Shown in pieces: positions 15,029 to 35,837 of a DNA stretch of 64,000 bases. Position numbers and translations under genes: made by a program. Positions within the stretch are counted from its first letter, which is position 1; each line of letters begins with the position of its first letter. Location: assembly GCF_041248615.1 (NCBI RefSeq), contig NZ_CP158426.1; one strand, written 5' to 3'. The notes beneath the pieces are model-generated. The model was given only the letters and a program-made list of their open reading frames with translations, searched no databases and was not told the origin of the DNA. This DNA comes from Escherichia coli (GTDB lineage Bacteria; Pseudomonadota; Gammaproteobacteria; Enterobacterales; Enterobacteriaceae).

Positions 15029-15043
15029 TTGCAGGAGCTGCCT

Positions 15044-17524: not shown

Positions 17525-17539
17525 TAGTCAGGTGGTTCT

Positions 17540-18574: not shown

Positions 18575-18629
18575 TAACAAGCAAGACGAGCAAGTGGCTA
18601 ATAATAAAAATAATAAGGTGTCTGCATTT

Positions 18630-18657
18630 CCCCCTCTCTTCGAGGGGGCTTTTTTTC
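18630..18657 (+). terminator. Intrinsic terminator after yehA
   Basis: CCCCCTC/GAGGGGG stem followed by CTTTTTTT. Overlaps the convergent rcnB stop codon. Confidence 0.8.
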
Positions 18658-18994
18658 AGCGATGATAAAAAATCTCACCGTCGTAGGCTTTAATGATTTT
18701 ACCGTCGGTGTCGTTGATCAACACGTACGCGCCACCCATATAGGTCCAGTGTGTCCCGGCATCAGGCGCGGGCAGGTTACGTAACTGCCACTGCTTAATG
18801 TTGTACTCATCGGTGCGGTACATCTCTGGGACGGTATCGCCTGGTTTGAAATGCTTAAAGTCAGCAATGAAACTGCTTAACTCATACTTAGAAATTCCCG
18901 AGGTATTGGTCGAACCCGCGGTGGCTGGTGCGGCCCAGGCGGCACTGGTAACCAGCAAAAGCACACCCAGCAACATCTTATTTTTAATGGTCAT
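18656..18994 (-). CDS. rcnB: Periplasmic Ni/Co homeostasis protein RcnB (YohN)
   Basis: ORF 18656..19174. The internal Met MTIKNKMLLGVLLLVTSAAWA starts a signal peptide and gives 112 aa. The upstream 60-aa extension was rejected. Confidence 0.88.
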   Translation of the reverse strand: MTIKNKMLLGVLLLVTSAAWAAPATAGSTNTSGISKYELSSFIADFKHFKPGDTVPEMYRTDEYNIKQWQLRNLPAPDAGTHWTYMGGAYVLINDTDGKIIKAYDGEIFYHR

Positions 18995-19212
18995 AAACTC
19001 TCCACTTTGGGGATCTGTAATATCAGTCGCATATCTTTCCTGCCATACAATATAACTGACAAGCGATATTTTGTTAGTGATCCCATGATTTCGTAAAAAG
19101 TGTAAATGAAAGGATGCCCTAAAAGCATCCTTAGCGAGCAGAGAGTCAGCGGAAATAGCTGATTTAAGAATCATCCTGGGCTGAAGATAACATGCAAGCC
19201 TAAAGGATTGAG

Positions 19213-20037
19213 TTATCGCATTATGCCCATGAAGCCATGTACGCCCATATACACACCAACTAAGCCAATCAACAGACTGGAAAAATAGGGGGCGCGTTTA
19301 GCGAGAGTGTTAAATCCGCTCCAGCGTTTTGCGACCTGCTGAACGCTGATTGCTGCGCCAACGCCTACGGTGACCAGCGTTAACGCCAGGCCAATGCTGA
19401 AACTGACGACCAGTGTTGCGCCCAGTGTCAGGGCTTTCAACTGAATGCAAATCAACAGCACGGTAATTGCTGCCGGGCAGGGGATAAGGCCACCGGTTAA
19501 GCCAAATAACAAAATTTGCCAGTTGGTGACCTCTCTACCATCAAAGCGTCGTTTAATGTCATTGGCATGGGCTCGTGCATGGGCATCCTGATACTCGCCA
19601 TGTTCGTGATGGTGATGATGTCCATGGTCGTGGTGATCTTCGTGATCGTGGTGATGATGCTCATGATCATGCTCGTGCATATTCTCCAGCCAGTTTCGTT
19701 CGCCGCGCCAGGTACGCCAGAACATCCAGAACGCGGTGCCAATAATGATCACTGCGGAAATCAACTGGAGCCACGGTTCTGCTGATTGAGCAGTAAAGCG
19801 CTTGCTGATCACCATCCCGCCAAAGGCAATCAACCAGACCACTGCGGTATGCGAAATGGTTGCTGCCAGTCCGAGCATCACCGCCTGTTTAATGGTGCCT
19901 TTGATGGCGATGATAAACGCCGCCATCATCGTTTTTGAGTGCCCTGGTTCCAGGCCATGAAGCGCACCAAGTAAGATGGCGCTGGGGATGAAGAACCAGG
20001 CGTTTCCTTGCTGAAGAAGAGTTGTAAATTCGGTCAT
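19213..20037 (-). CDS. rcnA: Ni/Co efflux protein RcnA
   Basis: 274 aa, multi-TM, with a His-rich loop (HEHDHEHHHHDHEDHHDHGHHHHHEHGE). Confidence 0.95.
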   Translation of the reverse strand: MTEFTTLLQQGNAWFFIPSAILLGALHGLEPGHSKTMMAAFIIAIKGTIKQAVMLGLAATISHTAVVWLIAFGGMVISKRFTAQSAEPWLQLISAVIIIGTAFWMFWRTWRGERNWLENMHEHDHEHHHHDHEDHHDHGHHHHHEHGEYQDAHARAHANDIKRRFDGREVTNWQILLFGLTGGLIPCPAAITVLLICIQLKALTLGATLVVSFSIGLALTLVTVGVGAAISVQQVAKRWSGFNTLAKRAPYFSSLLIGLVGVYMGVHGFMGIMR

Positions 20038-20074
20038 GATAATAATTCTTAGTATTAATTCGGCAATCTGATTC

Positions 20075-20109
20075 TACTCCCCCCCAGTACCTGATACTAC
20101 CCCCCAGTA
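20075..20109. promoter_or_regulatory. Two RcnR operator sites (TACT-G/C run-N-AGTA) in the rcnA-rcnR divergent region
   Basis: TACTCCCCCCCAGTA at 20075-20089 and TACTACCCCCCAGTA at 20095-20109. They match the known TACT-G6-N-AGTA RcnR operator type. Confidence 0.8.
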
Positions 20110-20157
20110 GATTAATAGTGCTATGATTTTTCATATTCTTATTAACCAGGTGTTGCC

Positions 20158-20430
20158 ATGTCTCATACCATCCGTGATAAACAGAAACTGAAAGCGCGTG
20201 CCAGTAAGATTCAGGGCCAGGTCGTGGCGCTCAAGAAAATGCTCGACGAGCCGCACGAATGCGCTGCAGTTTTACAACAGATTGCTGCTATCCGTGGCGC
20301 GGTAAACGGTCTGATGCGGGAAGTGATTAAAGGTCATCTGACGGAACACATCGTTCACCAGGGGGATGAGCTAAAACGTGAAGAAGATCTGGATGTCGTT
20401 CTGAAGGTGCTGGATTCTTATATCAAATAA
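20158..20430 (+). CDS. rcnR: Ni/Co-responsive repressor RcnR (CsoR/RcnR family)
   Basis: 90 aa, [22 protein letters not shown]..., divergent from rcnA. Confidence 0.95.
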
Positions 20431-20519
20431 TTTATTAACGCTATTGTAAAACTGCCGTTTTTCCTCGTTTACAACGCGTGCGCTGGACATTACCATCCTC
20501 CTCTGCGATTTATCATCGC

Positions 20520-20599
20520 AACCAAACGACTCGGGGTGCCCTTCTGCGTGAAGGCTGAGAAATACCCGTATCACCTGATCTGGATAATGCCAGCGTAGG
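20520..20599 (+). repeat. attL: 80-bp direct repeat, a copy of the thiM TPP aptamer/thi-box lacking the 3' P1 strand and expression platform
   Basis: Base-for-base identical to 33185-33264. Flanking bases differ on both sides. Preceded by native rcnR-thiM intergenic sequence. Confidence 0.9.
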
Positions 20600-20684
20600 T
20601 TGCCAACATTCTGATTAGTATTCATGTGGTTACATTTCTTTTTGTCCGTGTGTAATGCACCTAATGTACAAAAAGAGCGTAAAC

Positions 20685-21986
20685 ATGAGGTACAAAACTC
20701 TTCCATACACGTTTCAAAGAAACGGTAATTACTATCTACAGATTCGGCTTTCGAATGGTCGGATGTATAAAAAATCACTTCTCACTGACAGCTATCGTGA
20801 AGTCTCTGCTTTGATGATTGGTGTTGCTCCGTACATTCCTTTTGTTAAATCATTAGCCATCACAATCCCGATGTTTGATGCCTTTGTTTCAAACCTGATT
20901 ATGTCAAAACTTAGGGCTGTAAAAGTTCCGCTGCTATCACATCAGTCGGTAATTACCCCTGCTACATTCGAGGAACCAGCGACACAAGCCGAACCGCAAA
21001 ACATGCTAACTCTTTCTGATGCGTGGGCTATGTATAAAGCGGAAAAGGGTAAAACATGGACAAAGTCGATCTCAAGGGCGAATGAGCGTTACATGGAAGT
21101 CTTGATGGTTGTCTTGGGAGAGACAACTGACGTAGTTGCGATTTCTAAGCAGGACATCAAGCAGGTGATGGAAGTTGTTGAGAATTTGCCTAAGCGTGTT
21201 GTCCAACCGTATCGCTCAATGAACATCCAGCAACTGATTGAATGTGATGATGTATCACCGAATGAGTTAGTAGGAGTGGAAGCCATTCATAAGCATCTCA
21301 AAATCTACAAATCGCTTTTCAAGACTTTTCTAACAGAAAACAAAGATATTTTGATTAAATCCCCAACTGATGGGGTAGTAGCAGCACCATCTAAAGCAAG
21401 GTTTGGAGCATACAGTTCGGCGGAGATGAAGAAGTTTGTAGAGTGGGCACTTAAGCAGCCAGATGGCTGGCAGAAGTGGATAACATTGTTGTTGGCATAC
21501 ACAGGAGCCAGAAGGGGAGAAATTGCCAAACTGGAAAAATCACAAATAAAATATGATGAGGATAGCCATCGGTATTATTTCCTGATTGCAGAAGGAGGGC
21601 AGGGGAAAACCGAAAATGCTACCCGACAAGTAGTGATACACCCTAAGTTGATCGAATGGGGTTTCATGGAATACGTTGATCGCCAGTGGAAAGAACGGAT
21701 TTTTTCAGAAGTGGCTGGTACAAACATGACGAAGATCGGTAAAGAATTTGCTGATGTGCGTGACCAGCTTGACATTCCGTACTTAGACGATTTTGGACAG
21801 CGGAGGCTTTTGCATAGCATTCGTCATTCTGTTTGCTCTACTGCGATGGCTGGATGGGTAAAGAACATCTTGCATCTGCAACAAACAGTAGGCCATGAGA
21901 AAAGTGGAGGGATCACTAAACGCTACTTACATACGTTCCCACTATCATCAATTTGTTATGTTATTGATGGGATTAGTTGGGTCTGA
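20685..21986 (+). CDS. int: Tyrosine site-specific integrase
   Basis: ORF 20655..21986, likely start MRYKT at 20685. Catalytic signature ARRGEIAKL (Arg), GKTENATR (Lys), HSIRHS (His-x-x-Arg), GHEKSGGITKRYLH (Tyr). Confidence 0.85.
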   Translation: MRYKTLPYTFQRNGNYYLQIRLSNGRMYKKSLLTDSYREVSALMIGVAPYIPFVKSLAITIPMFDAFVSNLIMSKLRAVKVPLLSHQSVITPATFEEPATQAEPQNMLTLSDAWAMYKAEKGKTWTKSISRANERYMEVLMVVLGETTDVVAISKQDIKQVMEVVENLPKRVVQPYRSMNIQQLIECDDVSPNELVGVEAIHKHLKIYKSLFKTFLTENKDILIKSPTDGVVAAPSKARFGAYSSAEMKKFVEWALKQPDGWQKWITLLLAYTGARRGEIAKLEKSQIKYDEDSHRYYFLIAEGGQGKTENATRQVVIHPKLIEWGFMEYVDRQWKERIFSEVAGTNMTKIGKEFADVRDQLDIPYLDDFGQRRLLHSIRHSVCSTAMAGWVKNILHLQQTVGHEKSGGITKRYLHTFPLSSICYVIDGISWV

Positions 21987-22203
21987 AACTGCTAAGAATG
22001 ATAGGAAAAGCTACTTAATGATCCTTAGTTTTGGATGAAATTGAAGATTACAAAGATCTTGAGCGAATAAGAGCGTTTTTTAATCAAAAAAGCCATAAAA
22101 ACTTTTCTTGACTGTATATTAACACAGTGCTTCTACTATGTAGAAGAAATCGACATGAAAAATTTGATATGGTAAATTTTATCCATGATAACAAAAAGGT
22201 ATT

Positions 22204-23106
22204 GTGGATATGTTACTACCAATACGAGTTCATAAACGATTTCTAACTTTATTTAAGACTTTGCAAATTGACGATTGCCCACCGCAATCAACTTTAAATA
22301 TTCATGTACTTAATATCGAAAGCAATGAATTTATATACTGTAAATTAGTTGAAGAATTACGTGACATAATAATTACTTATGTACATTCGAATAGAAGGCT
22401 TGAGGAGTTTAAGGAAAGTTATCCTTCGTATAGCCCTAAACCTTTTTTCGAAGCAATACAAAAATTTCGCAATTATACGTCAAACGAAGGTGAGTTAGGT
22501 GAACTGCTTTTATACGCTTTTCTTGAAACAGGACTAAATGCTCCGAAATTACTTTCCAAAATGCAATTGAAAACAGATTCTAATGATTACATTAAGGGTT
22601 CTGATGGTGTACATCTGTTAGAATTAGATGATGGTTATCAATTAATATTTGGAGAATCAAAGCTCTATGCCGATCTTTTAGAAGGTGCTCGAGAAGCGTT
22701 TGATTCTATTTTAGATTTTAAAAGTAATGGAATGGCATTTGAAAGAGGGCTGATAGATACACACGTTATAAATGAAATGGTTTCAGAAGAAGGTTATGAG
22801 AAAATAAAATCAATTCTTCTTCCTTCTTCTGGCGATGATGGGCCAGATCTTGATTTATCCTTTGGTATATTTCTTGGTTTTGAATTGAAAATAGATAGCT
22901 CACAGTTATCATTGAAAAACAAAGAGTTTAGAGATTGGGTTAATGAGTCCGTGAAACAACATGCTACTCGCGTGGTCAGTACGATACGAAGGAAAATTAT
23001 TAATCATAAATTATATGGTCACGAATTCCACATATATATAGTTCCTTTTACCGATATTGATGTTACACGAAAAAAATTAATTCATGAAATGCTAACAATT
23101 AAGTGA
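22204..23106 (+). CDS. hamA: HamA-like protein (DUF1837-type PD-(D/E)xK nuclease fold) of a Hachiman-type system
   Basis: 300 aa (GTG 22204 or ATG 22210). Motifs EGELGELLLYAFLE (~aa 95-108), GSDGVH (aa 132-137), GESK (aa 150-153). Overlaps the next gene by 4 nt. Confidence 0.7.
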   Translation: MDMLLPIRVHKRFLTLFKTLQIDDCPPQSTLNIHVLNIESNEFIYCKLVEELRDIIITYVHSNRRLEEFKESYPSYSPKPFFEAIQKFRNYTSNEGELGELLLYAFLETGLNAPKLLSKMQLKTDSNDYIKGSDGVHLLELDDGYQLIFGESKLYADLLEGAREAFDSILDFKSNGMAFERGLIDTHVINEMVSEEGYEKIKSILLPSSGDDGPDLDLSFGIFLGFELKIDSSQLSLKNKEFRDWVNESVKQHATRVVSTIRRKIINHKLYGHEFHIYIVPFTDIDVTRKKLIHEMLTIK

Positions 23107-25691
23107 ACACTATGAATGAATTAAATTCAAGTAAAAACATTCATTTGGCAGCTCGTCTTGCAGATGATGCTTTTGAAAGTGCTTATTTTAAAGAAATCAA
23201 TAAGTTTATAAGTGGTTTATACAATTACAGTTTATTTAACTGCGATTCAGATGTTAGTCTCTCCGAGAGTGATAACAATAAAATAGCACACGCTTTGCGT
23301 TTTGCAGATATATTTTCACATTCTTCAAAAGAAAATCATAGATCATGTGCATTTGAAATTATAAGTAGAATAGCCTTATTAAAAAAACATGATCCTTATT
23401 TTAAATTTATAGGTACTGCTGTTATTAATCGGCTTGGGGTTTATGCAGCAGAAAAACTCATATCAAAAGGGGTAAAATTACCCTTAGATAGAGAAGTTGA
23501 TTCTATTATTAAAAAATCAGTTCAGAAAACAGATGAAGATGGAGTATATTTCACTGATAAACAACATGAGTTATACAAACTTTTAAAAAGTAGCAAAACA
23601 ATTAGTTTTGCTGGTCCCACTTCGATGGGAAAGTCATTTGTTATTAATGCATACATTAAGGAAATAACTCTTAAAAAAGAGCTTAAAAATATAGCTTTAA
23701 TTGTTCCTACACGGGCTTTAATAAGCCAAAATGCACTTAAGTTAAAAATTGATATTGCATTGTATAAGAATGAAAGCCCTTATAAAGTTGTTACGACATC
23801 CTACATTATTAATGGTGATGAAAGTAAAAATAAAGGCTATATTTTTATTCTCACCCCAGAAAGGCTGGTTAGTCTCATAAGCACTATTCCTGGACTAATG
23901 ATTGATTATGTTTTTGTAGATGAAGCTCAAAAGTTAACAACAAAAAATGATTCGAGGAGTCTTGTTACTTATTCAGCTATAGAGCAAACAATTAGTAAAA
24001 ATCCTGAGGCAAGATTATTCTTCTCTTCACCTAATTTATCTAATCCTGAAATATTTAATATTTTGTTTGATAGAAAAGACGCTTCGGTATATAGAAATAC
24101 AGAAGGTGCAACTACTCAGAATATGTATTTTATTGATCTTTTAAATAGCAGCTTTAGCTATGTTAATACCGAGAAAAGGACGCTTGAAAAAATAGATGAG
24201 ATCTCTAATACTTACACGAATACAAATGATGTTATCTATAAATTAAATAATGGTAAAAGTAAAATAATTTATTGTGGGGGGATAGAAAGCACGCTTGAGA
24301 GAACACGTAGCTTTATCAATTATCTCAAAATTAATAAGAAAAAAAGAAAGCATTTAAATTTAGAAATATCTTCTGAGATAAGAAACTTTGTTCATGATAA
24401 CTATGAACTTGCAGAAGCCATCAACTATGGTGTTGCTTTCCACTTTGGAAACTTGCCTCAATCGATTCGAGATTTAATTGAGCATCATTTCAAAATAGGA
24501 AATATTGACTATCTATTCTGTACATCAACCCTACTTGAGGGAGTCAATTTACCTGCAAGATCCGTATTTATTCTTACGCATAAAAAAGGCCCCAGTCCAT
24601 TAGAGTCGGTTGATTTTTGGAATCTGGCTGGGAGAGCTGGGCGATTATCTATGGAATTGTCAGGGGATATTTTTTGTATTAGGGATGATAATAAGCTTTG
24701 GAATAAAAAAGCTGTTGATAATATCCTTCTGTCTGACAAAAATAACATTTCATTAAAGCCAAGCTTCTATATTGAAGACGAAAAAAGATTGAACGATTTA
24801 CACCATATAATTACGACTGGTAAAACAGGGAATATTAAAAATGCTGAGTTCCTTAGAACTTTAGGAGATATGATAAGAATAGACACTCTGAGGGATTCTA
24901 AAGAACTTCCTCTTATTAGTTATTTCCAAAGCAGTGGAAAATCAGAAATTTTGTTAAGTGCAGAAAAAAGCACTGAAAATATTACCATGCCAATGAATAT
25001 CCTTTTGGCAAATAGTCATATTGCGATTGATTCGCAGTATCATGCTTTTAAAAAAATAAAAAGCCTTACAGTTAAGGAACTGAAATTATCATGGCAGCCT
25101 ACATACGAAGAAATTAAAGAAAAATTGAATTTGATATTCGATATTTACCAAGTTGAAAAGTTTGCAACAGGTAGAGAACGTCTTTATTTAAATTCAATTC
25201 CATATTATGCAGTATTACTGTTTCAATGGATTCGTGGAAATAGTCTACAGGAAATTATCTCGGGGGCAATTGCTTATAGAAAGAACAAAAGTATATATAT
25301 TAAAAATACACCTGTTCTTTTTGACAGCGAAAACCCAGCTCATTTAACTGCATTAGTTAATGAAACTATAAAAGACATTGAGTTGCGTGTAGGTTACCAG
25401 TTACAAAATTATTTTTCACATTACTGTCAGCTTCTGAATTATGTGTTACAAGGAAATCCAGGGGCAAACTGGTCTCAGTTCATTGAGTTTGGCTCTAATG
25501 AGCCAATAGTATGGCACCTACAAATGATGGGCTTTTCAAGGGATAGTGCAGTTTTTCTCAAGAAGAATTTTTCAAAACATCTTAAACTTGATAATGAAAT
25601 GAATAAACTCATCATAATGGATAAGGAACTGATCAAGCGTTCTTTCAAAAAAGATGGACTACATTACTTAGAAATCCAATCGTTATTATAA
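23103..25691 (+). CDS. hamB: HamB-like SF2 helicase of a Hachiman-type system
   Basis: 862 aa (GTG 23103 overlapping the hamA TGA, or ATG 23112). Walker A GPTSMGKS (nt 23613-23636), motif II DEAQ (nt 23919-23930), motif VI-like AGRAGR. Confidence 0.75.
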   Translation: MNTMNELNSSKNIHLAARLADDAFESAYFKEINKFISGLYNYSLFNCDSDVSLSESDNNKIAHALRFADIFSHSSKENHRSCAFEIISRIALLKKHDPYFKFIGTAVINRLGVYAAEKLISKGVKLPLDREVDSIIKKSVQKTDEDGVYFTDKQHELYKLLKSSKTISFAGPTSMGKSFVINAYIKEITLKKELKNIALIVPTRALISQNALKLKIDIALYKNESPYKVVTTSYIINGDESKNKGYIFILTPERLVSLISTIPGLMIDYVFVDEAQKLTTKNDSRSLVTYSAIEQTISKNPEARLFFSSPNLSNPEIFNILFDRKDASVYRNTEGATTQNMYFIDLLNSSFSYVNTEKRTLEKIDEISNTYTNTNDVIYKLNNGKSKIIYCGGIESTLERTRSFINYLKINKKKRKHLNLEISSEIRNFVHDNYELAEAINYGVAFHFGNLPQSIRDLIEHHFKIGNIDYLFCTSTLLEGVNLPARSVFILTHKKGPSPLESVDFWNLAGRAGRLSMELSGDIFCIRDDNKLWNKKAVDNILLSDKNNISLKPSFYIEDEKRLNDLHHIITTGKTGNIKNAEFLRTLGDMIRIDTLRDSKELPLISYFQSSGKSEILLSAEKSTENITMPMNILLANSHIAIDSQYHAFKKIKSLTVKELKLSWQPTYEEIKEKLNLIFDIYQVEKFATGRERLYLNSIPYYAVLLFQWIRGNSLQEIISGAIAYRKNKSIYIKNTPVLFDSENPAHLTALVNETIKDIELRVGYQLQNYFSHYCQLLNYVLQGNPGANWSQFIEFGSNEPIVWHLQMMGFSRDSAVFLKKNFSKHLKLDNEMNKLIIMDKELIKRSFKKDGLHYLEIQSLL

Positions 25692-25771
25692 AACTGCCGA
25701 ATCAGAGTCTTTTATTGATTCTGATTCGCACTTATATAGTTAAATCAAAAGGAGCATTAAAATTTTTCAGT

Positions 25772-25795
25772 AGCGATTTAGTATGCTAAATCGCT
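25772..25795. terminator. Strong hairpin between the convergent hamB and recombinase genes
   Basis: 10-bp perfect stem AGCGATTTAG/CTAAATCGCT with a TATG loop. There is no clean U tract, so its function as a terminator is uncertain. Confidence 0.35.
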
Positions 25796-25999
25796 GCATA
25801 ACGAATCTGCTTCTAAATCTTGATTAAGTGTTTCGAACTGCCTTGATTGTTTATTGCTACACTTTATAATTAATCGCAACACACAAAACAATACAATGTA
25901 GGCAGTTGCACAGAATTAATTACAGGCACATTATGGATATCGAGAGGATTCGAACAGTTTTAAACTGCAAGCCCTTTGACTTTATCCCCTCCTACTATA

Positions 26000-26575
26000 T
26001 CAGCGTTTGATGCCGCTAATACTGGCAAGCATTTCTTTCTTCACACGAAAAACTGTAGCCCTGCCGCAATCACATAACTTTGCTATCTCGTCTGGTGTAT
26101 TCTTCCCGGCCTGTAACATATCGATAATCTTGTTATGTAGCTCTTTGTTCTTTTGCTTGCCCTTGTACTTCTTAGCCTCTTTAGCAAGAGCAATCCCCTC
26201 ATTGCGACGAGATGCGATCATACCCCGCTCAAATTCTGCAGCGGCTCCCATCATGGTTAGGATAAGGCGTGATTGTGGGGAATTATCAAAACTCATAGAG
26301 TTTGCAAGGAATTGAACAGTGATTCCACGAGCCACGAGGTTATCAATCATTTCCAGCAAATCGCGGGTATTACGTGCAAGGCGATCAATCGAGTGAGTAA
26401 CGAGCGTGTCACCTTCGCGGAGGTGTGAAAGCAGGTTCAACAATTCAGGTCTTTCGCTGGTGGACTTACCTGATTCTTTCTCTGCCACAATTTTGTCACA
26501 AACAGGTTCCAGCACTGCCAACTGACGCTCAAGATTTTGATCCTTTGTTGAGACTCTCGCGTAACCAAAAATCAT
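26000..26575 (-). CDS. Serine recombinase (resolvase/invertase family)
   Basis: 191 aa. N-terminal MIFGYARVSTKDQNLERQ (catalytic Ser) and a C-terminal HTH (TPDEIAKLCDCGRATVFRV). Confidence 0.88.
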   Translation of the reverse strand: MIFGYARVSTKDQNLERQLAVLEPVCDKIVAEKESGKSTSERPELLNLLSHLREGDTLVTHSIDRLARNTRDLLEMIDNLVARGITVQFLANSMSFDNSPQSRLILTMMGAAAEFERGMIASRRNEGIALAKEAKKYKGKQKNKELHNKIIDMLQAGKNTPDEIAKLCDCGRATVFRVKKEMLASISGIKR

Positions 26576-26600
26576 TTTCCTGCCCTCACTTACGTGAAAA

Positions 26601-26664
26601 GTATCATTTGAATTTACTTAATGATACAGTATCATTTAAATGCATTCAACATCTAAATGATACT
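26601..26664. promoter_or_regulatory. res-like recombinase binding sites upstream of the serine recombinase gene
   Basis: Inverted GTATCATT (26601-08)/AATGATAC (26620-27) and AGTATCATTTAAAT (26628-41)/ATCTAAATGATACT (26651-64). That is four copies of one half-site. Confidence 0.55.
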
Positions 26665-27082
26665 AAACGAGACGAGAAAAGCGAGTATCGTTAGGGAGTA
26701 CCCAAAAGAGATTTTTGATCGTGCGTTTTTTAGTCAATGTAGGGTTAGTGAAAAGTTCAGTACCGAGATCTGAGTTCACGGCATTTTGTCGACGGGGTTG
26801 AACCTGATTAGGCGAACGAGATTTTAAATCAGGCGGAATAAAACAAGTTGTACTTTTATCTGAGTAAAAGATCCCTTTAACTTTTTAGTCAGAAATCGTG
26901 ATACTAGGGGTTTGGTTATTTTGTGTCCTTAAGGCCAGTACTTTTAGCGAGGACGAAAAAACGGCCTACATGAGAACGCTTACAGTAACTTAAGTATATT
27001 ATCCAAAAAGTCACTTAACTTAAATCAATTTGGATGCAAAATCGCCACACTTTGCAAGTGAACACATACCGGGCAACAAGCA

Positions 27083-27109
27083 AATAAAAAAGGCCACTTT
27101 CGCGACCTT
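27083..27109 (-). terminator. Intrinsic terminator of the membrane/periplasmic two-gene operon
   Basis: Minus strand AAGGUCGCGAAAGUGGCCUU followed by UUUUAUUU, 17 nt after the stop at 27126. Confidence 0.7.
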
Positions 27110-27125
27110 GTACCAGTACAAACAC

Positions 27126-27485
27126 TCATTCAGAACGATCAAGTACCATATATGCTGGCTGACACATGCTGCCCCGCTCCTGTAGCCAGTAGTAATCAAG
27201 ATCGGCAACACGCACGTCCAATCCAGAATCTACACGGTTGATCTGTAACCGTAGCCCTACAGTATCCTTGTACGATAAACCAGATTTAACATTGTATTTG
27301 TACTTAACACCGTTTTCCTGTTCAAACTGTTTAAGGAAAGGCGTCATTTGTTTCTGAATTTCTTTCAAACAAATAACCTCATTATCAATAGCAAAGGGGG
27401 GTTCTGTTTTTCCATCAGGTACAGCAGCCTGTAAATGAAAGGAAGTACTCAACAATAACAGCATTGCAACAGAAGTCTTTTTCAT
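27126..27485 (-). CDS. Small exported protein of unknown function
   Basis: 119 aa. Sec signal peptide MKKTSVAMLLLLSTSFHLQA|AVP. Lies 43 nt downstream of the preceding gene on the same strand. Confidence 0.7.
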   Translation of the reverse strand: MKKTSVAMLLLLSTSFHLQAAVPDGKTEPPFAIDNEVICLKEIQKQMTPFLKQFEQENGVKYKYNVKSGLSYKDTVGLRLQINRVDSGLDVRVADLDYYWLQERGSMCQPAYMVLDRSE

Positions 27486-27528
27486 TTTAATTCCTTATTA
27501 AAGAACAGTACATTATATTTCAATGGAC

Positions 27529-28569
27529 TTAATAACAATATTTTATATTTCCTTCGGGTTTTCTCATGCATTTAATTCCTTCAGGAATATAATCAGTTAC
27601 GGGAGCAGGTCTGGCATCAGGTCTTGAAAGACGATTGGATATAGAAGACAACAGACTGAAAACACACTCATTAAATGATTTTTGATATTTATTTTTTTCA
27701 TAAAAGTACTGCATGGTGATTTTATCTCTTTCGTATTGCAATTCTTTGCCAAGCTGAATCCTATCCATATCAATTCCATTTCTCATAGCATTAAATCTTT
27801 CGTTCAATAAATTAAATTGAGATTTATTCCATTCATTTAAAGGAAATAAAGAATTGTTAAGCCTTTGCCTACAATTAGATTGCTCGATAGCTGACATGTA
27901 TTCTTTCATACTAACGCCAATATCTAAGTATGTGAGTTGTCCAGCAGTTCTATCAACTGAGTTATTAGGGTAAGATTTAATTTCAGTAAGTATTGACTCT
28001 GTTAATACTGCATTTTCTTCTAAATCTTTGCTAATAGTTATTTGAGCTTGTTCTCTTTTATCCTTATCAAATATTGAAATGTATTTCTTTACTATATCCT
28101 GATTAGCTTTCTCGGCTGCTACTAACGCATCTTGAACCTTCTTTTCCGCCGCTTTAACTCGTTGTTCTTCTACAAATTTCGCGTAGTCATCAGTATTTGT
28201 AATGTGATTTTCACGAGCGATAGAAAACTCTTTACTATCTTTAAAACCAAGTTTTTGTGCTCTGGCTCCATCGCTTGAAGATCGGGCAGAACTTGCCACG
28301 AAAGCGAGCACAATGATCAGTACAGGAACCGTATAATTATTAACGAGTTTATAGGGTAAGAACTTCGCTTTAAGCGTACCATAACCCAAAACAGCCCAGC
28401 CTATCGCGGCAGTACTTGCCAGTAGCTGGCACAATCCAGCGACGGAAAGCATGATTACCGACCAGAAGCCTGTACCGACTGCGAAAAGATCACCAAATTT
28501 CTCCATTGACGCAAGGAATAAAAACACTCCCCAAATGCCATAAAATCCTATTTTCAAATATTTACTCAC
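27529..28569 (-). CDS. Inner-membrane protein (about 3 N-terminal TM helices plus ~240-aa soluble/coiled-coil-like domain), unknown function
   Basis: 346 aa, GTG start with AAAGGA upstream. Hydrophobic segments IGFYGIWGVFLFLASM, FWSVIMLSVAGLCQLLASTAAIGWAVLGYG and VPVLIIVLAFVASSA. Confidence 0.7.
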   Translation of the reverse strand: MSKYLKIGFYGIWGVFLFLASMEKFGDLFAVGTGFWSVIMLSVAGLCQLLASTAAIGWAVLGYGTLKAKFLPYKLVNNYTVPVLIIVLAFVASSARSSSDGARAQKLGFKDSKEFSIARENHITNTDDYAKFVEEQRVKAAEKKVQDALVAAEKANQDIVKKYISIFDKDKREQAQITISKDLEENAVLTESILTEIKSYPNNSVDRTAGQLTYLDIGVSMKEYMSAIEQSNCRQRLNNSLFPLNEWNKSQFNLLNERFNAMRNGIDMDRIQLGKELQYERDKITMQYFYEKNKYQKSFNECVFSLLSSISNRLSRPDARPAPVTDYIPEGIKCMRKPEGNIKYCY

Positions 28570-28789
28570 CGCAATTATCCTTTAATAATTTTCCAAATCG
28601 ATGGTTCGTTCTATTTGTATTATCGACAATAATTCGTTTGCCTTTAGGTAGATCCCTTAAAAAGGAATCCCCCCAAAATTTATAGATTAGCAGTTGTACC
28701 ACTCTCACTGTTTTGTCACTCCCATTATCTTCTCTCAGGTCAAAAGTACGGACTTAAAGCCGTCCGTGTTCAGGTGCTCAAGAGTAGCA

Positions 28790-28900
28790 CGCATATCAAT
28801 AAATGATCGATAAAAACGATCAATTAATGGCTTATTGATCGCTATAACCTATCAATGACTATTAATTCAATACAAATCAATAGGTAAAATCGATCAAGAG
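28790..28900. repeat. Iteron-like cluster of (G)ATCAAT/GATCGA motifs with several GATC sites
   Basis: ATCAAT at 28795, 28851 and 28876; CGATCAAT at 28817; TTGATCG at 28835; GATCGA at 28805; CGATCAAG at 28891. All lie within an ORF-free tract. Confidence 0.45.
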
Positions 28901-29552
28901 GATTCGTCATCCATGAAAGGGGTTATGTATCTGATTTCAATACAGGGAGTATTAGCGATACCATCACGCAAACGCTCTTAAAGCGTAGCTACGGCGTTTT
29001 GTAGGGTTTTTGGTCATTCATGTGTGTCAGTAATGAACATCGCATTCAGGGGCTTCCTGTGCGTTTTGTCCGAAACACCATCATGAAGGGGGACAGATCG
29101 GATCGGGGTCGCTTCGCTCTGGTCAGTACTGGATAGTTCTTTTCCAGTAACTGAAACCGCAGATACCCCACTAAGTACACAAAGGAATTATTTGTAGAAT
29201 AAGTAATGAAATAACAGTCAGTTATGTACTTACTGACAGAACTAAAAACGCGATTAGGTTCGCTCTGTCAGTGACCGAAGGGAACGCAACAGTAGAATCT
29301 AATCCAGCGAACAGTACACGCAAGCGGGTGCTGTTTAATTGTTTTATCTATGTAAACAATGGGATAGCTATCAAGTACTCACTGCGTGAGCACTCTCACT
29401 AACTACCCGAAACAGTTCGCTTGCTTCGCCGCTCCTACTTTCAGGTAGTTAATTCGCTTTCGCTCGTTGTGATGTCCGAAATTTATTACCTATAGTATTA
29501 TAAGGTATTATTTTCCGGACATTTATGTATTTTTATGATGGTGTTCTGGACA

Positions 29553-31028
29553 TCATTTTTTGCTTTTTTGTACTTCCTTTTCGTATTTGTTCCACATAGC
29601 CTTTTGCTCTTCGGGACTGAGTGCTGTATTACCACTGGCAAGAAACACCTTGAACGCTTCTAACTCAAGCCCTGGGTTGCGGCTTTTCCAGCGGCGAAAA
29701 CGCTTAGCGTGATTATCATCAAGAGTGAAACGCTTTTGCTTATTCTTTGAACCTTGCGGCCTGCCTCTCGACCTCTGCTCATCATCAATACCGATATCTA
29801 TATACTCAATATTATCTGTAAGAGATCTGGCTTGCCATTCATCAAAAACATAAACAGTCTGTGTTTCAGTACTGTCAAAATCCCTTGAAATTCCTCGTAG
29901 TACGAACTGGTGTAAACTTTCGTACTCCCTCGCAACATGTATCGCCTCGCCGTCAATCTCAAAGAACAATTCGCACTGTTTAGCCTCTGTTTCAGAGGGA
30001 CGCATACAAGCGAGCCAGACGCACGTGAGCAAGTGTTGGTACTGGTTAAACCCTCTGGCATCCGGGCTTATCTCTGTGCCGTTTTTGAGGCTCTGAGAAT
30101 CGCTTTTGTTCTTCGTCCAGTAGAAATCCTGTCCCTCAAGTTTTTTATCAATAAATGAGTATATTTTTTGTACTTTATCAGGGTTATTAGTCTTCCATGT
30201 CTTCGATAGTTTTTGATTTTTTGAGAAGTAATAAACCTTTAATCTGTCTTTGAGAGCTGTTTTTCGTGTCAGTAATCCTCCAAGTTCAGTACTTTCAAAG
30301 AGTTCTTTATTGCCTTTATAGATCAATGAATTTTCGAAATTAGCTCCGAGAAAGGTGATTGATACGTCTTTGTACTTACTGAGATCTTTCCATGCGGTAA
30401 TATTAAGCTGTTCCTTTTTCGCATCGGTAAAGTACTCATTATTCATGATGAACATATCATTTTCGTTAATTGCTGGTAGCTGGTTCAAAATATTCTTCAG
30501 TACTTCCCCTTGTATTTCTGGTTTTCTTTCTGCCGCAATATACATATTTTTATCATCTAATGTCAGTACATTGTGTATTAATGAATTAAGAATTGTATTT
30601 TTTATATTAGTATCACCCTCATTAATATTCTGAAAAGAGTGAAAATTAGTAACGTCGTCAATATAAATATTACAGTCAGATAACAATTCAGGAGGAATTT
30701 TGAAAAACGTTTTATCTGTTATGAGTAATGTTTTATTACTTCCAGATGAAAGAAAGTTAATAACTGAATTAATAACACTTTCATCTTTTGGTACTGTATC
30801 TGTAATTATATACTCGCAATTATTGATTTGCTTTGCTGTCTGCTTAATAAGTTCTTGAGTGTTCTGTACTAAAATATATTTTTCAGTACTGTTATTGATT
30901 ATATTGCATATAGCAGTAGTTTTACCTGAACCACAAGGGGCGGAGACATACTTAAATTTATTATAAATAGGTGTGGGATTAATCATTTGTACACGCTCCA
31001 TATTGATTAATGTAGAAAGGTCAGCCAT
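29553..31028 (-). CDS. SF2-helicase-like P-loop NTPase with a C-terminal AT-hook/basic tail
   Basis: 491 aa. Walker A APCGSGKTT, Walker B-like NIYIDDV, motif VI-like HQFVLRGISR, and an AT-hook core SRGRPQGSKNK near the C-terminus. Confidence 0.7.
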   Translation of the reverse strand: MADLSTLINMERVQMINPTPIYNKFKYVSAPCGSGKTTAICNIINNSTEKYILVQNTQELIKQTAKQINNCEYIITDTVPKDESVINSVINFLSSGSNKTLLITDKTFFKIPPELLSDCNIYIDDVTNFHSFQNINEGDTNIKNTILNSLIHNVLTLDDKNMYIAAERKPEIQGEVLKNILNQLPAINENDMFIMNNEYFTDAKKEQLNITAWKDLSKYKDVSITFLGANFENSLIYKGNKELFESTELGGLLTRKTALKDRLKVYYFSKNQKLSKTWKTNNPDKVQKIYSFIDKKLEGQDFYWTKNKSDSQSLKNGTEISPDARGFNQYQHLLTCVWLACMRPSETEAKQCELFFEIDGEAIHVAREYESLHQFVLRGISRDFDSTETQTVYVFDEWQARSLTDNIEYIDIGIDDEQRSRGRPQGSKNKQKRFTLDDNHAKRFRRWKSRNPGLELEAFKVFLASGNTALSPEEQKAMWNKYEKEVQKSKK

Positions 31029-31370
31029 TCCAGTGTCTGGCCTTTCGTTGTTTTAGTTATTAGTCTTTTTGAGTTGCGACAACTGCAAGAGAATGTTTAT
31101 AAACAAGTGAAATAAGCAGTTTTACCGCCTCAAAAGCTACAGTCAGTTTCGTAATTATTTTCGAAAGCATCGTAAATTTCACTTCGCTATCTTCTATGCA
31201 AAAATTAGCAGCCTGAGGTATTTAATGATTGAGATGTGGCCTGTTGATAAGAGGGTTTGTATTGCTTGTTCTGCTCTTTGTTAATTTGTGACTTATTCCT
31301 TTCACAATGATCGGCTATGTTTGATAACTCTGTTAGGAAATCACCTATGGCTACCATATTGGATTTGCCC

Positions 31371-32276
31371 CTATATTTCCAGACACCTGTTATCACTTAA
31401 CCCATTACTGGCCTGCTGCCGCAGATATTCCCGTGGCGAGCGATAACCCAGTGCACTATGCGGATGCCATTCGTTATAATGCTCGAACGCCTCTGCAAGG
31501 TTCTTTGCTGCCGTTAACCCGTCTGGTTTAGGCATGATACTGATGTAGTCACGCTTTATCGTTTTCACGAAGCTCTCTGCTATGCCGTTACTCTCCGGAC
31601 TCCGCACCGCCGTGTTCTTCGGTTCAAGCCCCAATATCCGGGCAAACTGCCGTGTTTCATTAGCCCGGTAGCATGAACCATTATCCGTCAGCCACTCTAC
31701 TGGAGACGCCGGAAGCTCGTTGCCGAAGCGGCGTTCCACCGCTCCCAGCATGACGTCCTGTACTGTTTCACTGTCGAAGCCGCCCGTAGTGACTGCCCAG
31801 TGCAGTGCCTCACGGTCACAGCAGTCCAGCGCGAACGTGACTCGCAGTTTTTCTCCGTTATCACAGCGGAACTCGAACCCGTCAGAGCACCATCGTTGAT
31901 TGCTTTCTTTCACGGCCACTTTGCCAGTATGTGCCCGTTTCGATGGCGGTACAGCGGTTTTTCGCTCAAGCAACAGCGCATTCTGGCGCATGATCCGGTA
32001 AACACGTTTGGCATTGATCGCAGGCGTACCATCAAGTTCGGCCTGTCTGCGAAGCAGCGCCCATACCCGACGATAACCATACGTGGGCAGCTCTCCGATA
32101 ACATGGTGTATACGGAGAAGCACATCCGTATCATCTGAGTGACGGCTGCGGCGACCATCTTTCCAGTCATCGGTTCGTCTGAGAATTACGTGCAACTGCG
32201 CACGCGACACCCGGAGACAACGGCTGACTAAGCTTACTCCCCATCCCCGGGCAATAAGGGCGCGTGCGCTATCCAC
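31371..32276 (-). CDS. insD: IS2 transposase OrfB (InsD, DDE domain)
   Basis: 301-aa ORF overlapping orfA in the -1 frame, as in IS3-family elements. Confidence 0.92.
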
Positions 32277-32599
32277 TTTTTTGCACGCCCGTATTCAACG
32301 GCTTCTTTAAGGAGTTCATTTTCCATCGTTTTTTTGCCGAGCAGGCGCTGGAGTTCTTTAATCTGCTTCATGGCAGCAGCAAGTTCAGAGGCAGGAACGA
32401 CCTGCTCTCCTGCGGCCACAGCAGTAAGACTTCCCTCCTGGTATTGCTTGCGCCAGAGAAATAACTGGCTGGCTGCCACACCGTGTTGCCGGGCAACAAG
32501 GGAGACCTTCATTCCCGGTTCAAAACTCTGCTGAACAATAGCGATCTTTTCCTGTGTAGTACGCCGTCTGCGTTTCTCCGGTCCTAAGACATCAATCAT
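32234..32599 (-). CDS. insC: IS2 OrfA (InsC, HTH)
   Basis: Start at [22 protein letters not shown] (ATG 32599), 121 aa. Confidence 0.9.
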
Positions 32600-33184
32600 C
32601 TGCTCTCCAATGACTAGTCTAAAAACTAGTATTAAGACTATCACTTATTTAAGTGATATTGGTTGTCTGGAGATTCATGGGGCCAGTCTACATATAATCA
32701 TGTTCATCTTCTAATTCTTTAAATTTTAATAGAGAAATCTCTTCATAATATTCTTTCATTTTCATATAAATCACCTTTTATTTTTTTGTTGTTAACACAG
32801 GTTTTTTTCTGCACTACACATTATAGCACATAGAATTAATTCGTTTCATTTTCTGTCAATGAAATAGAGTAAAGATAAATGCTTTTATAAAGCACTTATC
32901 ACATCCGTTGCCTTGCTATATATAAAAAGTTCTCCAAACTATACTGGTGTATATTTTCCCCATCAGATACAGTTGTTTTTAAACATTACAATGTTGGATT
33001 CTTGGTTCCAAATAAATCGAGCAACTATTAGTGTTTCAAAATGAAGTTGGGAGCTATTCCTTAATTCGTATGAGGTACAAAATGGGGTACTCGGTGGGGT
33101 ACAGCGTGTATAAGTGACGTCACCACGGGTAAACTTGCATCGGCGAGCAACTTAACCTAAGCTGACAAAAATTAAGAGAAATGT

Positions 33185-33264
33185 AACCAAACGACTCGGG
33201 GTGCCCTTCTGCGTGAAGGCTGAGAAATACCCGTATCACCTGATCTGGATAATGCCAGCGTAGG
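33185..33264 (+). repeat. attR: 80-bp direct repeat (thi-box aptamer copy contiguous with the native thiM expression platform)
   Basis: Identical to 20520-20599. Confidence 0.9.
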
Positions 33265-33317
33265 GAAGTCACGGACCACCAGGTCATTGCTTCTTCACGT
33301 TATGGCAGGAGCAAACT
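33185..33317 (+). promoter_or_regulatory. thiM TPP riboswitch (aptamer plus SD-sequestering expression platform)
   Basis: Contains the thi-box CTGAGAAATACCCGTATCACCTGATCTGGATAATGCCAGCGTAGGGAAGTC. GGCAGGAGCAAACT then precedes the ATG of thiM. Confidence 0.88.
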
Positions 33318-34106
33318 ATGCAAGTCGACCTGCTGAGTTCCGCGCAATCTGCGCACGCGTTACACCTTTTTCACCAACATTCCCCTCTTGTGCACTGCAT
33401 GACCAACGATGTGGTGCAAACCTTTACTGCCAATACCTTGCTGGCGCTCGGTGCATCGCCAGCGATGGTTATCGAAACCGAAGAGGCCAGTCAGTTTGCG
33501 GCTATCGCCAGTGCGTTGCTGATTAACGTTGGCACGCTGACGCAGCCACGCGCACAGGCGATGCGTGCCGCCGTTGAACAGGCAAAACGCTCTCAAACAC
33601 CCTGGATGCTTGATCCAGTAGCGGTGGGTGCACTCGATTATCGCCGCCGTTTTTGTCTGGAACTTCTGTCTCATAAGCCAACCGCCATACGTGGTAATGC
33701 TTCGGAAATCATGGCATTAGCTGGCGTTGCTAATGGTGGACGGGGAGTGGATACCACTGACGCCGCAGCTAACGCGATACCCGCTGCACAAACACTGGCA
33801 CGGGAAACTGGCGCAATCGTCGTGGTCACTGGCGAGATGGATTATGTTACCGATGGACATCGTATCATTGGTATTCACGGTGGCGATCCGTTAATGACCA
33901 AAGTGGTAGGAACTGGCTGTGCATTATCGGCGGTTGTCGCTGCCTGTTGTGCGTTACCAGGCGATACGCTGGAAAATGTCGCATCTGCCTGTCACTGGAT
34001 GAAACAAGCCGGAGAACGCGCAGTCGCCAGTAGCGAGGGGCCAGGCAGTTTTGTTCCACATTTCCTTGATGCGCTCTGGCAATTGACGCCGGAGGTGCAG
34101 GCATGA
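33318..34106 (+). CDS. thiM: Hydroxyethylthiazole kinase
   Basis: 262 aa, [33 protein letters not shown]... Confidence 0.96.
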
Positions 34107-34903
34107 AACGAATTAACGCTCTGACGATTGCCGGTACTGATCCGAGTGGTGGTGCGGGGATTCAGGCCGATCTTAAAACCTTCTCGGCACTTGGCGCTTA
34201 TGGTTGCTCAGTGATTACTGCACTGGTGGCGCAAAATACCCGTGGCGTACAGTCGGTGTATCGCATTGAGCCTGATTTTGTCGCCGCCCAGCTCGATTCG
34301 GTGTTCAGCGATGTGCGAATCGATACCACTAAAATCGGTATGTTGGCGGAAACCGATATTGTTGAAGCGGTGGCAGAACGGTTGCAACGTTATCAGATCC
34401 AAAACGTGGTACTCGACACCGTTATGCTGGCAAAAAGCGGCGACCCGCTGCTTTCACCTTCGGCGGTTGCTACGCTGCGCAGTCGATTATTGCCACAGGT
34501 TTCATTAATAACGCCAAACTTGCCCGAAGCTGCTGCCTTGCTCGACGCGCCACACGCGCGCACCGAACAGGAAATGCTGGAACAAGGGCGATCGCTGTTG
34601 GCGATGGGCTGTGGCGCAGTGCTAATGAAAGGTGGTCATCTGGATGATGAGCAAAGCCCGGACTGGCTGTTTACTCGCGAGGGAGAACAACGGTTTACCG
34701 CACCGCGCATTATGACCAAAAACACCCACGGCACTGGTTGTACGCTCTCTGCGGCGTTGGCTGCACTACGCCCGCGCCATACAAACTGGGCTGACACCGT
34801 ACAGGAGGCAAAAAGCTGGCTTTCATCGGCGTTAGCCCAGGCCGACACGCTGGAAGTTGGTCACGGTATTGGTCCGGTTCACCACTTCCACGCCTGGTGG
34901 TGA
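34103..34903 (+). CDS. thiD: Hydroxymethylpyrimidine/phosphomethylpyrimidine kinase
   Basis: 266 aa, [27 protein letters not shown].... 4-nt overlap with thiM. Confidence 0.96.
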
Positions 34904-34958
34904 GCACCGTACTATAGCTGCTTTGGTTATTGTCAGCCTTTGGCACTGACATTCAGGG

Positions 34959-35786: not shown

Positions 35787-35837
35787 ATAAGAAGCAGTGA
35801 TATACTCCCACCAGACTCCCTGGCAGGAAAAAGACAA

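Follow-up and report, generated by a model that had tools for sequence, protein, structure and literature searches.

Sequence analysis of a 64,000-nucleotide stretch of Escherichia coli DNA (RefSeq assembly GCF_041248615.1, contig NZ_CP158426.1; the whole stretch is called the window here) led to an island at positions 20520-33264 that is very probably a site-specific integrative element, 12,665 bp long when one terminal repeat is included. Its attachment site (att) is the thiamine pyrophosphate (TPP) riboswitch in the leader of thiM, the thi-box. This use of the riboswitch had been proposed in an original prediction made from the letters of the window, and it is supported by the empty site found in other genomes, by independent acquisition of the element and by the linkage between the integrase and the core of the thi-box.

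Terminal repeats and riboswitch copies

The island is bounded by direct repeats of 80 nucleotides with 100% identity, attL (20520-20599, plus strand) and attR (33185-33264, plus strand), which start 12,665 nt apart and are the only such repeat family found in the region. The abutting bases differ on the left side (C/AACC versus T/AACC, the slash marking the repeat boundary) as well as on the right side (...GTAGG/TTGCC versus ...GTAGG/GAAGT). Both copies score above the gathering score of 54.3 bits of the Rfam family TPP (RF00059). The right copy (33187-33283, plus strand) reaches 71.2 bits over model positions 1-105 of 105 with helix P1 present; it is the complete thiM aptamer regenerated at attR, carries a RefSeq riboswitch feature and is a P1-closed aptamer that is followed by the host expression platform and by the start of thiM at 33318. 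The 5′ part of attR would derive from the element, and the 3′ part of this intact riboswitch is that of the host. The left copy (20522-20617) scores 58.0 bits with three non-canonical P1 positions, its 3′ P1 strand and the conserved GGGAA junction being swapped for island sequence. Judged by its letters, attL is a truncated aptamer without 3′ P1 strand and expression platform that is followed by the integrase gene, and not a functional riboswitch as defined. The RefSeq record NZ_LT599825.1 (E. coli NRZ14408), which is identical to the window, lists two 'TPP riboswitch' features at the locus, and the insertion explains this double annotation.

A search with ARAGORN over positions 18000-36000 gave no tRNA or tmRNA gene at either boundary, and TPP is the only Rfam family at the island ends. 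The GC content is 0.29-0.43 inside the island and about 0.44-0.55 in the flanks, with the IS2 segment (about 0.55) as an exception. To the right lies thiM (33318-34106, plus strand; hydroxyethylthiazole kinase, TIGR00694, 334 bits; also annotated in RefSeq), which is served by the riboswitch and is followed by thiD. The left neighbour in E. coli, rcnR (20158-20430, plus strand; PF02583), lies outside the target. The original prediction had described perfect 80-bp repeats with differing flanks, their identity with the thi-box aptamer of thiM, a tyrosine integrase next to the left repeat, an AT-rich interior, and defence, recombinase and insertion sequence (IS) genes as cargo. All of these descriptions hold: the repeats were recovered by repeat search and by the boundary letters, the integrase gene starts 85 nt to the right of the repeat, the GC profile shows the low-GC interior apart from the IS2 segment, and the genes are those of a Hachiman defence system, a small serine recombinase and IS2. 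The adjacency of rcnR and thiM in K-12, stated there as background, is borne out in K-12 derivatives.

Empty site and independent acquisition

A synthetic query composed of the left flank, one repeat and the right flank was used to search for the empty site. In 4,723 of 5,426 complete E. coli genomes, K-12 derivatives included, rcnR, a single riboswitch copy and thiM are contiguous, so that the empty attB which the prediction expected in genomes lacking the insert is the majority state. The 80-mer occurs 5,671 times over 5,424 genomes, which leaves about 250 genomes with more than one copy; in MG1655 it is found once. In every inspected case the second 80-mer borders an inserted element with an integrase or an integrase remnant. 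Two findings had been named in advance as speaking against an attachment site, namely repeat pairs in genomes without the island and the lack of any single-copy allele; neither was encountered, extra copies being rare and, in the inspected cases, bounding elements.

The island itself was found in eight genomes, and seven of these copies lack IS2, those of KE55, C325, A37 and Q5 among them. Comparison of the window with three carriers gave a divergence of 0.07-0.17% for the island versus 2.3-2.9% for both 6-kb flanks, and the carriers A37 and C325 differ from each other by 2.7-2.9% in the flanks and by 0.11% in the island. The roughly 20-fold shift falls at the repeats, and at least three backgrounds are involved. 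Because the change in divergence coincides with the repeats and the island is far less divergent than its surroundings, the same element has entered the same site independently. A decayed island of the window type is present in E. coli O8:H8 16F5M1D1 (L005, 5086-7190), where an IS3 element truncates the integrase gene and a deletion has removed everything between it and the helicase gene, yet neither of the thi-box repeats is damaged.

An integrase family tied to the thi-box

The integrase of the island (433 amino acids; 20685-21986, plus strand; a RefSeq coding sequence) belongs to a thi-box-specific family of tyrosine integrases. Residues 258-427 match PF00589 with 30.7 bits (Pfam cutoff 27.1 bits), and the protein matches phrog_1 at 2e-25. 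In alignments of 14 and 18 sequences R276/R277, K308, H377, R380, H404 and Y414 are invariant; from their positions in the motifs these are candidate catalytic residues.

The combination of attL and a related integrase gene was detected in 177 E. coli genomes (at least 80% query coverage), mostly at about 75% nucleotide identity, and each of these matches overlaps both an annotated 'riboswitch' and an annotated 'integrase'. Integrase homologues with 81-86% identity occur in Klebsiella, Enterobacter, Citrobacter, Leclercia, Pantoea, Erwinia, Serratia and other genera. A collection of Enterobacterales with one genome per species yielded 36 loci with integrase relatives of 42-85% identity. At the Rfam gathering score a TPP aptamer lies directly upstream of the integrase gene in 22 of these, and the 26-nt common core ACCTGATCTGGATAATGCCAGCGTAG (20573-20598 in the window, plus strand), searched with up to five mismatches, ends 85-111 nt upstream of the integrase start in 34 of the 36 loci. 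The core is free of mismatches in 28 of the 34 loci that have it, and the two loci without it contain N-terminally truncated integrase matches. The survey suggested with the prediction, whether related integrases always sit at thi-boxes, thus gave the core beside the integrase in 34 of 36 species-level genomes. In Klebsiella pneumoniae (L046) a Usp gene takes the place of rcnR at the left and thiM is again found at the right. Since the left neighbour differs and thiM stays, the thiM leader is the target and not the intergenic context.

The integrase family is absent from a collection of 50,697 phage records and has no record in the plasmid collection; a scan of IMG/VR gave one locus. The closest out-group integrase found, with 42% identity, is encoded in E. 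coli H240 directly downstream of rnpB (RNase P RNA, 320 bits). In this strain the 3′ end of rnpB recurs twice about 7.6 kb downstream, which suggests an island integrated into rnpB, and the thi-box clade seems to belong to a lineage of integrases that have structured RNAs as their targets. The H240 sequence is a 4.8-Mb chromosome that is filed as a plasmid (NZ_OL790696.1); the segments concerned are L051 2900-3276 and L052 493-539, 8119-8177 and 8232-8290.

Crossover position and att architecture

Four related loci restrict the position of the crossover. At L009 the attR copy has element-specific single-nucleotide differences (TTCTTTGTG, GTATTACC) located 5′ of the core, which are missing from the attL copy, and in the attL of both L009 and L002 divergence from the host begins right after GCGTAG. 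The two copies at L043 differ in the P3 loop, and a hybrid att site at L050 shares only 40 nt of the aptamer, core included. Because of this pattern, strand exchange is confined to the 26-nt core or less. The core corresponds to the P4/P5 stem-loop (CUGG-AUAAUG-CCAG, flanked by P4), and by analogy with the sublocations in tRNA genes its stem-flanked loop is the likely overlap region. The rest of the repeat, 54 nt with the P1 5′ strand, P2 and P3, is a copy of the 5′ aptamer that belongs to the element. The remark in the original prediction that 80 bp is long for a tyrosine integrase core was right as to length, and it needs correction as to the core: the crossover takes up at most the last 26 nt, and the identity block is long because the element carries a replacement 5′ aptamer beyond the core.

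The related elements fall into class A (the window element, L002, L008 and Klebsiella L046) and class B (L009, L025, L043 and L045). In class B, identity with the host sets in at the P1 5′ strand (GACUC) or a few bases away from it and tracks the P3 sequence of the host lineage. Selection, and probably also gene conversion, would keep the rebuilt riboswitch functional.

The architecture of attP was reconstructed in silico. Three direct G(A/G)GGTAC(A/T) repeats with 12-nt spacing (33072-33103, plus strand) are candidate arm-type sites of the P arm; the same triplet is present in L008 and L046, the right arm of class A elements also holds a palindrome, and GGTACA recurs at codons 2-3 of the integrase gene. 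In class B elements GGGACACA/TGTCACA repeats occupy the matching places and the integrase gene begins with ATGGGACACA, so that the putative arm-type repeats co-vary with the integrase class on both arms, as arm-type sites would. The motif GGGGTACA is not enriched in the window as a whole (27 matches versus 29 expected), and it is the local triplet with its 12-nt spacing and its conservation that is meaningful.

The P′ arm coincides with the integrase leader (20600-20684, plus strand). Repeat search and alignment revealed two features in it, an inverted-repeat arm, TGGTTACATTTCTTTT (20627-20642), and a hairpin in which the integrase start codon is paired. The complementary arm AAGAGAAATGTAACCA lies at 33174-33189 (plus strand). 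In L008 and L046 both members of this pair are altered, and in attP the two arms would bracket the thi-box. In most class A integrase leaders (A3 columns 3-17, for example L012 and L046), though not in that of the window element, the core is directly followed by a perfect 15-bp palindrome GGCCGAAATTCGGCC, one position of which shows G-C to A-U double changes. This palindrome may be a binding site, either core-type or accessory, or else a hairpin of the leader. In class B an inverted copy of the P5 stem-loop directly follows the core. Defined C and C′ core-type sites were sought and could not be assigned with confidence, the spacing being different in L002, L008 and the window.

Other elements at the site and the modular backbone

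The original prediction of one island at a riboswitch proved correct as to the island and can be refined as to its setting: the element is not a one-off, it is a member of a modular family, and at least two other element types share the site. At least three kinds of elements with related integrases occupy the thiM leader. The first has the backbone of the window element; in a pig isolate (L002) TIR and NACHT genes take the place of Hachiman next to the same right end. The second is a 9-kb island with HNH, helix-turn-helix (HTH) and serine recombinase genes (L008 type), and the third is a 13-kb element (L009) annotated with a capsid protein, the capsid match being below the Pfam cutoff. Minimal thi-box elements of 3.4-3.8 kb consist of the integrase gene and a single cargo gene. 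Among the sister elements the genes in place of Hachiman include TIR and NACHT, SIR2 and others, and the rcnR-thiM interval is variable in about 700 of the 5,426 E. coli genomes.

The backbone block (window 25937-31068), with genes for a serine recombinase, a 119-amino-acid protein, a 346-amino-acid protein and a helicase, is not restricted to thiM. It recurs with 85-97% identity at ppdD in E. coli 94-3024 (L003) and between yggR and yggS in E. coli TK3887 (L004). At these two loci a large serine recombinase of 520-598 amino acids is present instead of the tyrosine integrase, and the cargo differs (a STAND ATPase and unknowns). This looks like swapping of integration modules on a common vehicle for defence cargo.

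In the O157:H7 strain 2149 (L001, 17729-20003) a one-ended 2.3-kb remnant of an L008-type element, including an HTH_73-like gene, lies directly upstream of the thi-box. It has neither a left repeat nor an integrase gene. Homology to the native left flank ends at the rcnR stop codon and the native rcnR-thiM intergenic region is lost, so the thi-box is preceded solely by element-derived sequence, which is 84% identical to the right end of L008. At the hybrid att site of L050 (9875-9914; IMG/VR UViG 2531839180_000003) a phage-like element upstream ends in the 40 nt of the thi-box, preceded by two GTGTGGTCAGTT repeats, and a class B integrase gene abuts. This indicates tandem occupancy of the site. 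An element of the L050 type, with 40 nt of aptamer, would not rebuild the whole riboswitch alone.

Genes of the island

Next to the integrase gene the island carries the cargo genes hamA (22210-23106, plus strand) and hamB (23112-25691, plus strand). HamA contains a DUF1837 domain (PF08878, 1e-62) and matches PADLOC HamA1 at 2e-120 over positions 1-297 of 298; HamB is a helicase with DEAD and Helicase_C domains which matches PADLOC HamB1 at 8e-296 over positions 2-845 of 845. The genes are separated by 5 nt, and adjacent HamA and HamB define the system as Hachiman type I, in which nothing unusual was detected. In the carrier E. coli A37 (L053, 8510-11088) hamB is split into two open reading frames (ORFs), annotated as a DEAD/DEAH helicase and a 'helicase-related protein', and the Hachiman cargo is probably inactivated in this strain.

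The backbone starts with a small serine recombinase of the resolvase/invertase type (191 amino acids; 26000-26575, minus strand; PF00239, 2.5e-36; phrog_125 DNA invertase, 5e-58), which is kept in L002, L003, L004 and L046. A repeat search revealed res-like inverted and direct repeats (AGTATCATTT...) at 26597-26664, directly upstream of this gene, and these form a candidate recombination site that may serve resolution of the element. Then follow the 119-amino-acid protein (27126-27485, minus strand), whose translation has an N-terminal signal peptide and which is identical in L002 and L003, and the 346-amino-acid protein (27529-28569, minus strand), with N-terminal hydrophobic segments that resemble transmembrane helices. 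A stretch of about 1 kb that lacks a long ORF (28570-29552) is conserved as well: it is about 85% identical to L004, the match continuing unbroken into the helicase gene. GATC-rich iteron-like repeats are present at 28804-28897 and no Rfam family matches; the stretch could be an origin of replication, a regulatory region or an RNA not yet described. Among the backbone genes, the one with the highest conservation (29553-30986, minus strand) encodes a 477-amino-acid superfamily 2 (SF2) helicase with an XPD/Rad3/DinG-like fold and a basic C-terminal tail.

The last backbone ORF, of 74 amino acids, is interrupted by IS2: its C-terminal part is at 31205-31359 (minus strand) and its N-terminal part at about 32696-32766. 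It is intact in the seven IS-free island copies, for example at L007:12103-12327. The IS2 copy (1,331 bp; 31360-32690, minus strand; NCBIfam IS2 TnpB, 700.8 bits, and TnpA, 272.9 bits) is flanked by a 5-bp target duplication, CATAT, at 31355-31359 and 32691-32695, and the window copy of the element may be impaired by it. Searches of Pfam, PHROGs, PADLOC and the PDB gave no significant match for the 119-, 346- and 74-amino-acid proteins. A possible kinship of the 74-amino-acid ORF with the HTH_73 protein at the matching place in L008 was considered and discarded, the two being unrelated. Apart from the island, the yeh fimbrial operon (window 15029-18574) has IS3-family interruptions in the O157:H7 strain (L001) and the pig isolate (L002), which have no relation to the island.

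Proposed promoter exchange and mechanism

The insertion rearranges the transcription signals on both sides. The candidate native thiM promoter, TTTACA-17-TACCAT (20468-20496, plus strand), is the only sigma-70-like site called in 20380-20760; it is now separated from thiMD by 12.7 kb and points towards the truncated aptamer and the integrase gene. Because the backbone genes near attR are all on the minus strand, transcription of thiMD must start in the last ~100 nt of the island. A TTGCAT-17-TAAGCT block in this part (33135-33163, plus strand), which is conserved with unchanged spacing across the window element, L008 and L046 and in the remnant of O157:H7, is a candidate element-borne thiMD promoter; we hypothesize that it is the replacement promoter on the basis of this conservation and of the arrangement in O157:H7. 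In the class B element L009 a diverged copy of the thiM promoter (TTTACA-17-TACTAT) and of the leader hairpin is found upstream of attR. ThiD is needed for de novo synthesis of thiamine, and since nothing other than element-derived DNA precedes the thi-box in O157:H7, this DNA would be a working promoter.

In the mechanism we propose, the integrase would recombine attP, which the element carries, with the thiM riboswitch aptamer. Strand exchange takes place in the last 26 nt or less of the repeat, in the P4/P5 stem-loop. The dyad symmetry of this core may act as the anticodon and T stem-loops do for tRNA-targeting integrases. Because the integrase gene lies on the downstream side of the core, insertion would separate thiMD from both the native promoter and the 5′ half of the riboswitch aptamer. 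The element would make up for this loss with an exactly copied 5′ aptamer segment of 54 nt and with upstream DNA that supplies transcription. The resulting attR would place a complete riboswitch before thiMD, with native sequence from AACC onward, and the resulting attL would combine the candidate native promoter with an aptamer lacking the 3′ P1 strand that reads into the integrase gene. The backbone is a modular vehicle, with Hachiman as its payload here and with other defence cargo and large serine recombinases at other loci.

We tentatively extend this mechanism to a reciprocal promoter swap, a proposal that we rate as possible and somewhat below an even chance. The element would drive thiMD with TPP control kept, and the integrase gene would come to stand behind the host promoter and a thi-box without P1, so that element maintenance and thiamine metabolism would be wired together. 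In O157:H7 thiMD would depend permanently on domesticated element DNA, and the thi-box and rnpB-adjacent integrases would form a lineage that recognizes non-tRNA structured-RNA genes. Several observations weigh against the mechanism or parts of it. The TTGCAT-17-TAAGCT block is not called by a consensus promoter scan (6 of 12 matches). The AlphaFold model of the integrase (pLDDT 45) is too poor to support an N-terminal arm-binding domain of the heterobivalent lambda type; it shows three N-terminal strands and a helix at low confidence. No excisionase was recognized among the island proteins in scans with PHROGs, Pfam and other profiles, and Pfam and NCBIfam gave no match to a relaxase, a type IV secretion or coupling protein or a packaging protein among the scanned island proteins, an oriT being possible. 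Gene conversion between the copies, and not selection for riboswitch function, could account for part of the 80-nt identity.

Alternative explanations

The pair of thi-boxes might have been a pre-existing duplication or a recombination hotspot filled without a site-specific integrase. The variable rcnR-thiM interval of some 700 genomes and its very diverse contents, as in a generic hotspot, agree with this, but the single-copy state is the norm, and every inspected duplicate comes with a member of a single integrase family, whole or as an IS-truncated remnant, at 85-111 nt from the core and in fixed orientation. This linkage holds over 34 species-level genomes with different neighbours, and the jump in divergence at the repeat boundaries and the attP-like architecture, with repeats co-varying with the integrase class, are likewise not what filling of this kind predicts, which makes it very improbable. 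The copy in NRZ14408 could, within site-specific integration, be a fixed remnant that no longer excises, IS2 having disrupted a gene needed for excision or its regulation. We take this as a serious possibility that falls not far short of an even chance: IS2, with its 5-bp duplication intact, breaks an ORF that is whole in seven other copies, decay is common at the site (the IS3-truncated integrase gene of L005, the one-ended O157:H7 remnant), and island scans recognized no excisionase. Against it, the integrase gene, both att sites and the remaining backbone genes are intact and near-identical to those of IS-free copies, and loss of the 74-amino-acid ORF may not matter for excision.

The backbone has also been considered as a helper-dependent phage satellite or hitch-hiker that replicates after excision and is packaged or mobilised. 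The iteron-like GATC-rich non-coding region beside the helicase gene and the serine recombinase with its res-like repeats resemble a module for replication and multimer resolution; the size of about 11 kb and the modular exchange of integrases are also reminiscent of satellites, and a related integrase occurs on the 13-kb element annotated with a capsid protein. We nevertheless consider a satellite rather unlikely, since the hallmarks AlpA, primase/Rep, terminase and capsid-redirecting proteins were not detected in the island ORFs with PHROGs, Pfam and NCBIfam, the helicase is XPD/DinG-like SF2, unlike the known initiators of satellites or plasmids, the integrase family turned up at one locus in the IMG/VR scan and in none of the 50,697 phage records, and the capsid match of L009 is below the Pfam cutoff. 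Still less probable is that the thi-box fragment regulates the integrase gene, through TPP or through alternative leader pairings in the integrated and excised states. The integrase gene is indeed always co-oriented with the 5′ aptamer, 85-111 nt past the core. Its start codon lies in a conserved hairpin, with 92% of cells paired versus 37-56% in slid controls and with some C-G to U-G changes, and the transcript from the window attP is predicted to free the start codon (unpaired probability from 0.10 to 0.57). However, release is weak in L002 (0.09 to 0.24) and is not reproduced in L008 and Klebsiella L046, the attL aptamer has no P1, and a TPP-dependent alternative structure was not identified in these leaders. 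A state-sensing leader was therefore rejected as a general mechanism, the prediction holding for the window element alone. Covariation in the hairpin was likewise discarded as proof of an RNA role: the start-codon helix is nearly invariant with almost no covariation, which cannot separate RNA structure from DNA sites, and the inverted repeats can equally be read as DNA binding sites.

Comparison with known systems

Integrative elements target tRNA and tmRNA genes, a few small-RNA genes and protein genes, and Williams reportedly described sublocation classes for integrases of tRNA and tmRNA genes in 2002. Similar to the islands in tRNA and tmRNA genes (P4 type), the thi-box element has a tyrosine integrase gene at one end that reads away from the att site, the crossover lies in a stem-loop of a conserved structured RNA, and part of the target is carried along and regenerated between flanking direct repeats. 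The thiM site also supports tandem arrays and decay remnants as those sites do. Unlike in these islands, the target is a cis-regulatory aptamer in an mRNA leader, so that the element does not belong to the tRNA/tmRNA group. The replaced part differs as well: islands in tRNA genes replace the 3′ end and leave the intact gene beside the integrase gene, whereas the thi-box element replaces the 5′ part of its target together with the promoter and leaves the intact copy distal to the integrase gene. It must replace the 5′ side because the functional unit lies downstream of the core. A further parallel is what is called regulated gene integrity or active lysogeny, in which insertion or excision of an element controls a host gene: at thiM, too, insertion takes place between a host operon and its control region and changes how the operon is driven. 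Here, unlike there, the host unit is neither split nor inactivated, the RNA is rebuilt, the promoter alone is exchanged, and evidence of regulated excision was not obtained.

Structured RNAs other than tRNA are used as attB by phiEf11, which integrates in ffs (4.5S RNA), and by pneumococcal prophages in csRNA genes (PMC12540744). The thi-box element resembles these and its rnpB-adjacent sister in this respect, and differs from them in that ffs, csRNA and rnpB are genes for trans-acting RNAs. The attB classes listed in the same source are protein genes, tRNA/tmRNA genes, csRNA genes and intergenic sites, a riboswitch not being among them (PMC12540744). No earlier description of a riboswitch aptamer as attB was found in the literature searched, most subscription journals being outside its coverage. 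The element is also similar to the defence-island hotspots of E. coli, where small islands with an integrase sit between core genes and hold exchangeable anti-phage systems (Hochhauser et al. 2023, PMC10121019). The yggS/yggR site, where L004 contains the same backbone, is hotspot 6 in that study, and 'rcnR-thiM' appears in its supplementary table as a non-hotspot locus; its main text does not mention thiM, rcnR or a riboswitch, and an analysis of this att site or its integrase was not found there (Hochhauser et al. 2023, PMC10121019). The Hachiman type I system of the window, with both components full length, is replaceable cargo.

The thi-box is a precise and widespread insertion site for defence systems in Enterobacterales, occupied in about 4-5% of complete E. 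coli genomes in addition to fixed remnants as in O157:H7, and one integrase family can move cargo across many genera because 28 of the 34 loci share an unchanged 26-nt core. The identity of the thiMD promoter differs between strains. The integrase and its attB, which is present in E. coli K-12, are a candidate pair for genome engineering. More generally, a cis-regulatory RNA can serve as attB, and the cargo needed for this, the 5′ half of the aptamer with a promoter, mirrors the solution found by the elements in tRNA genes.

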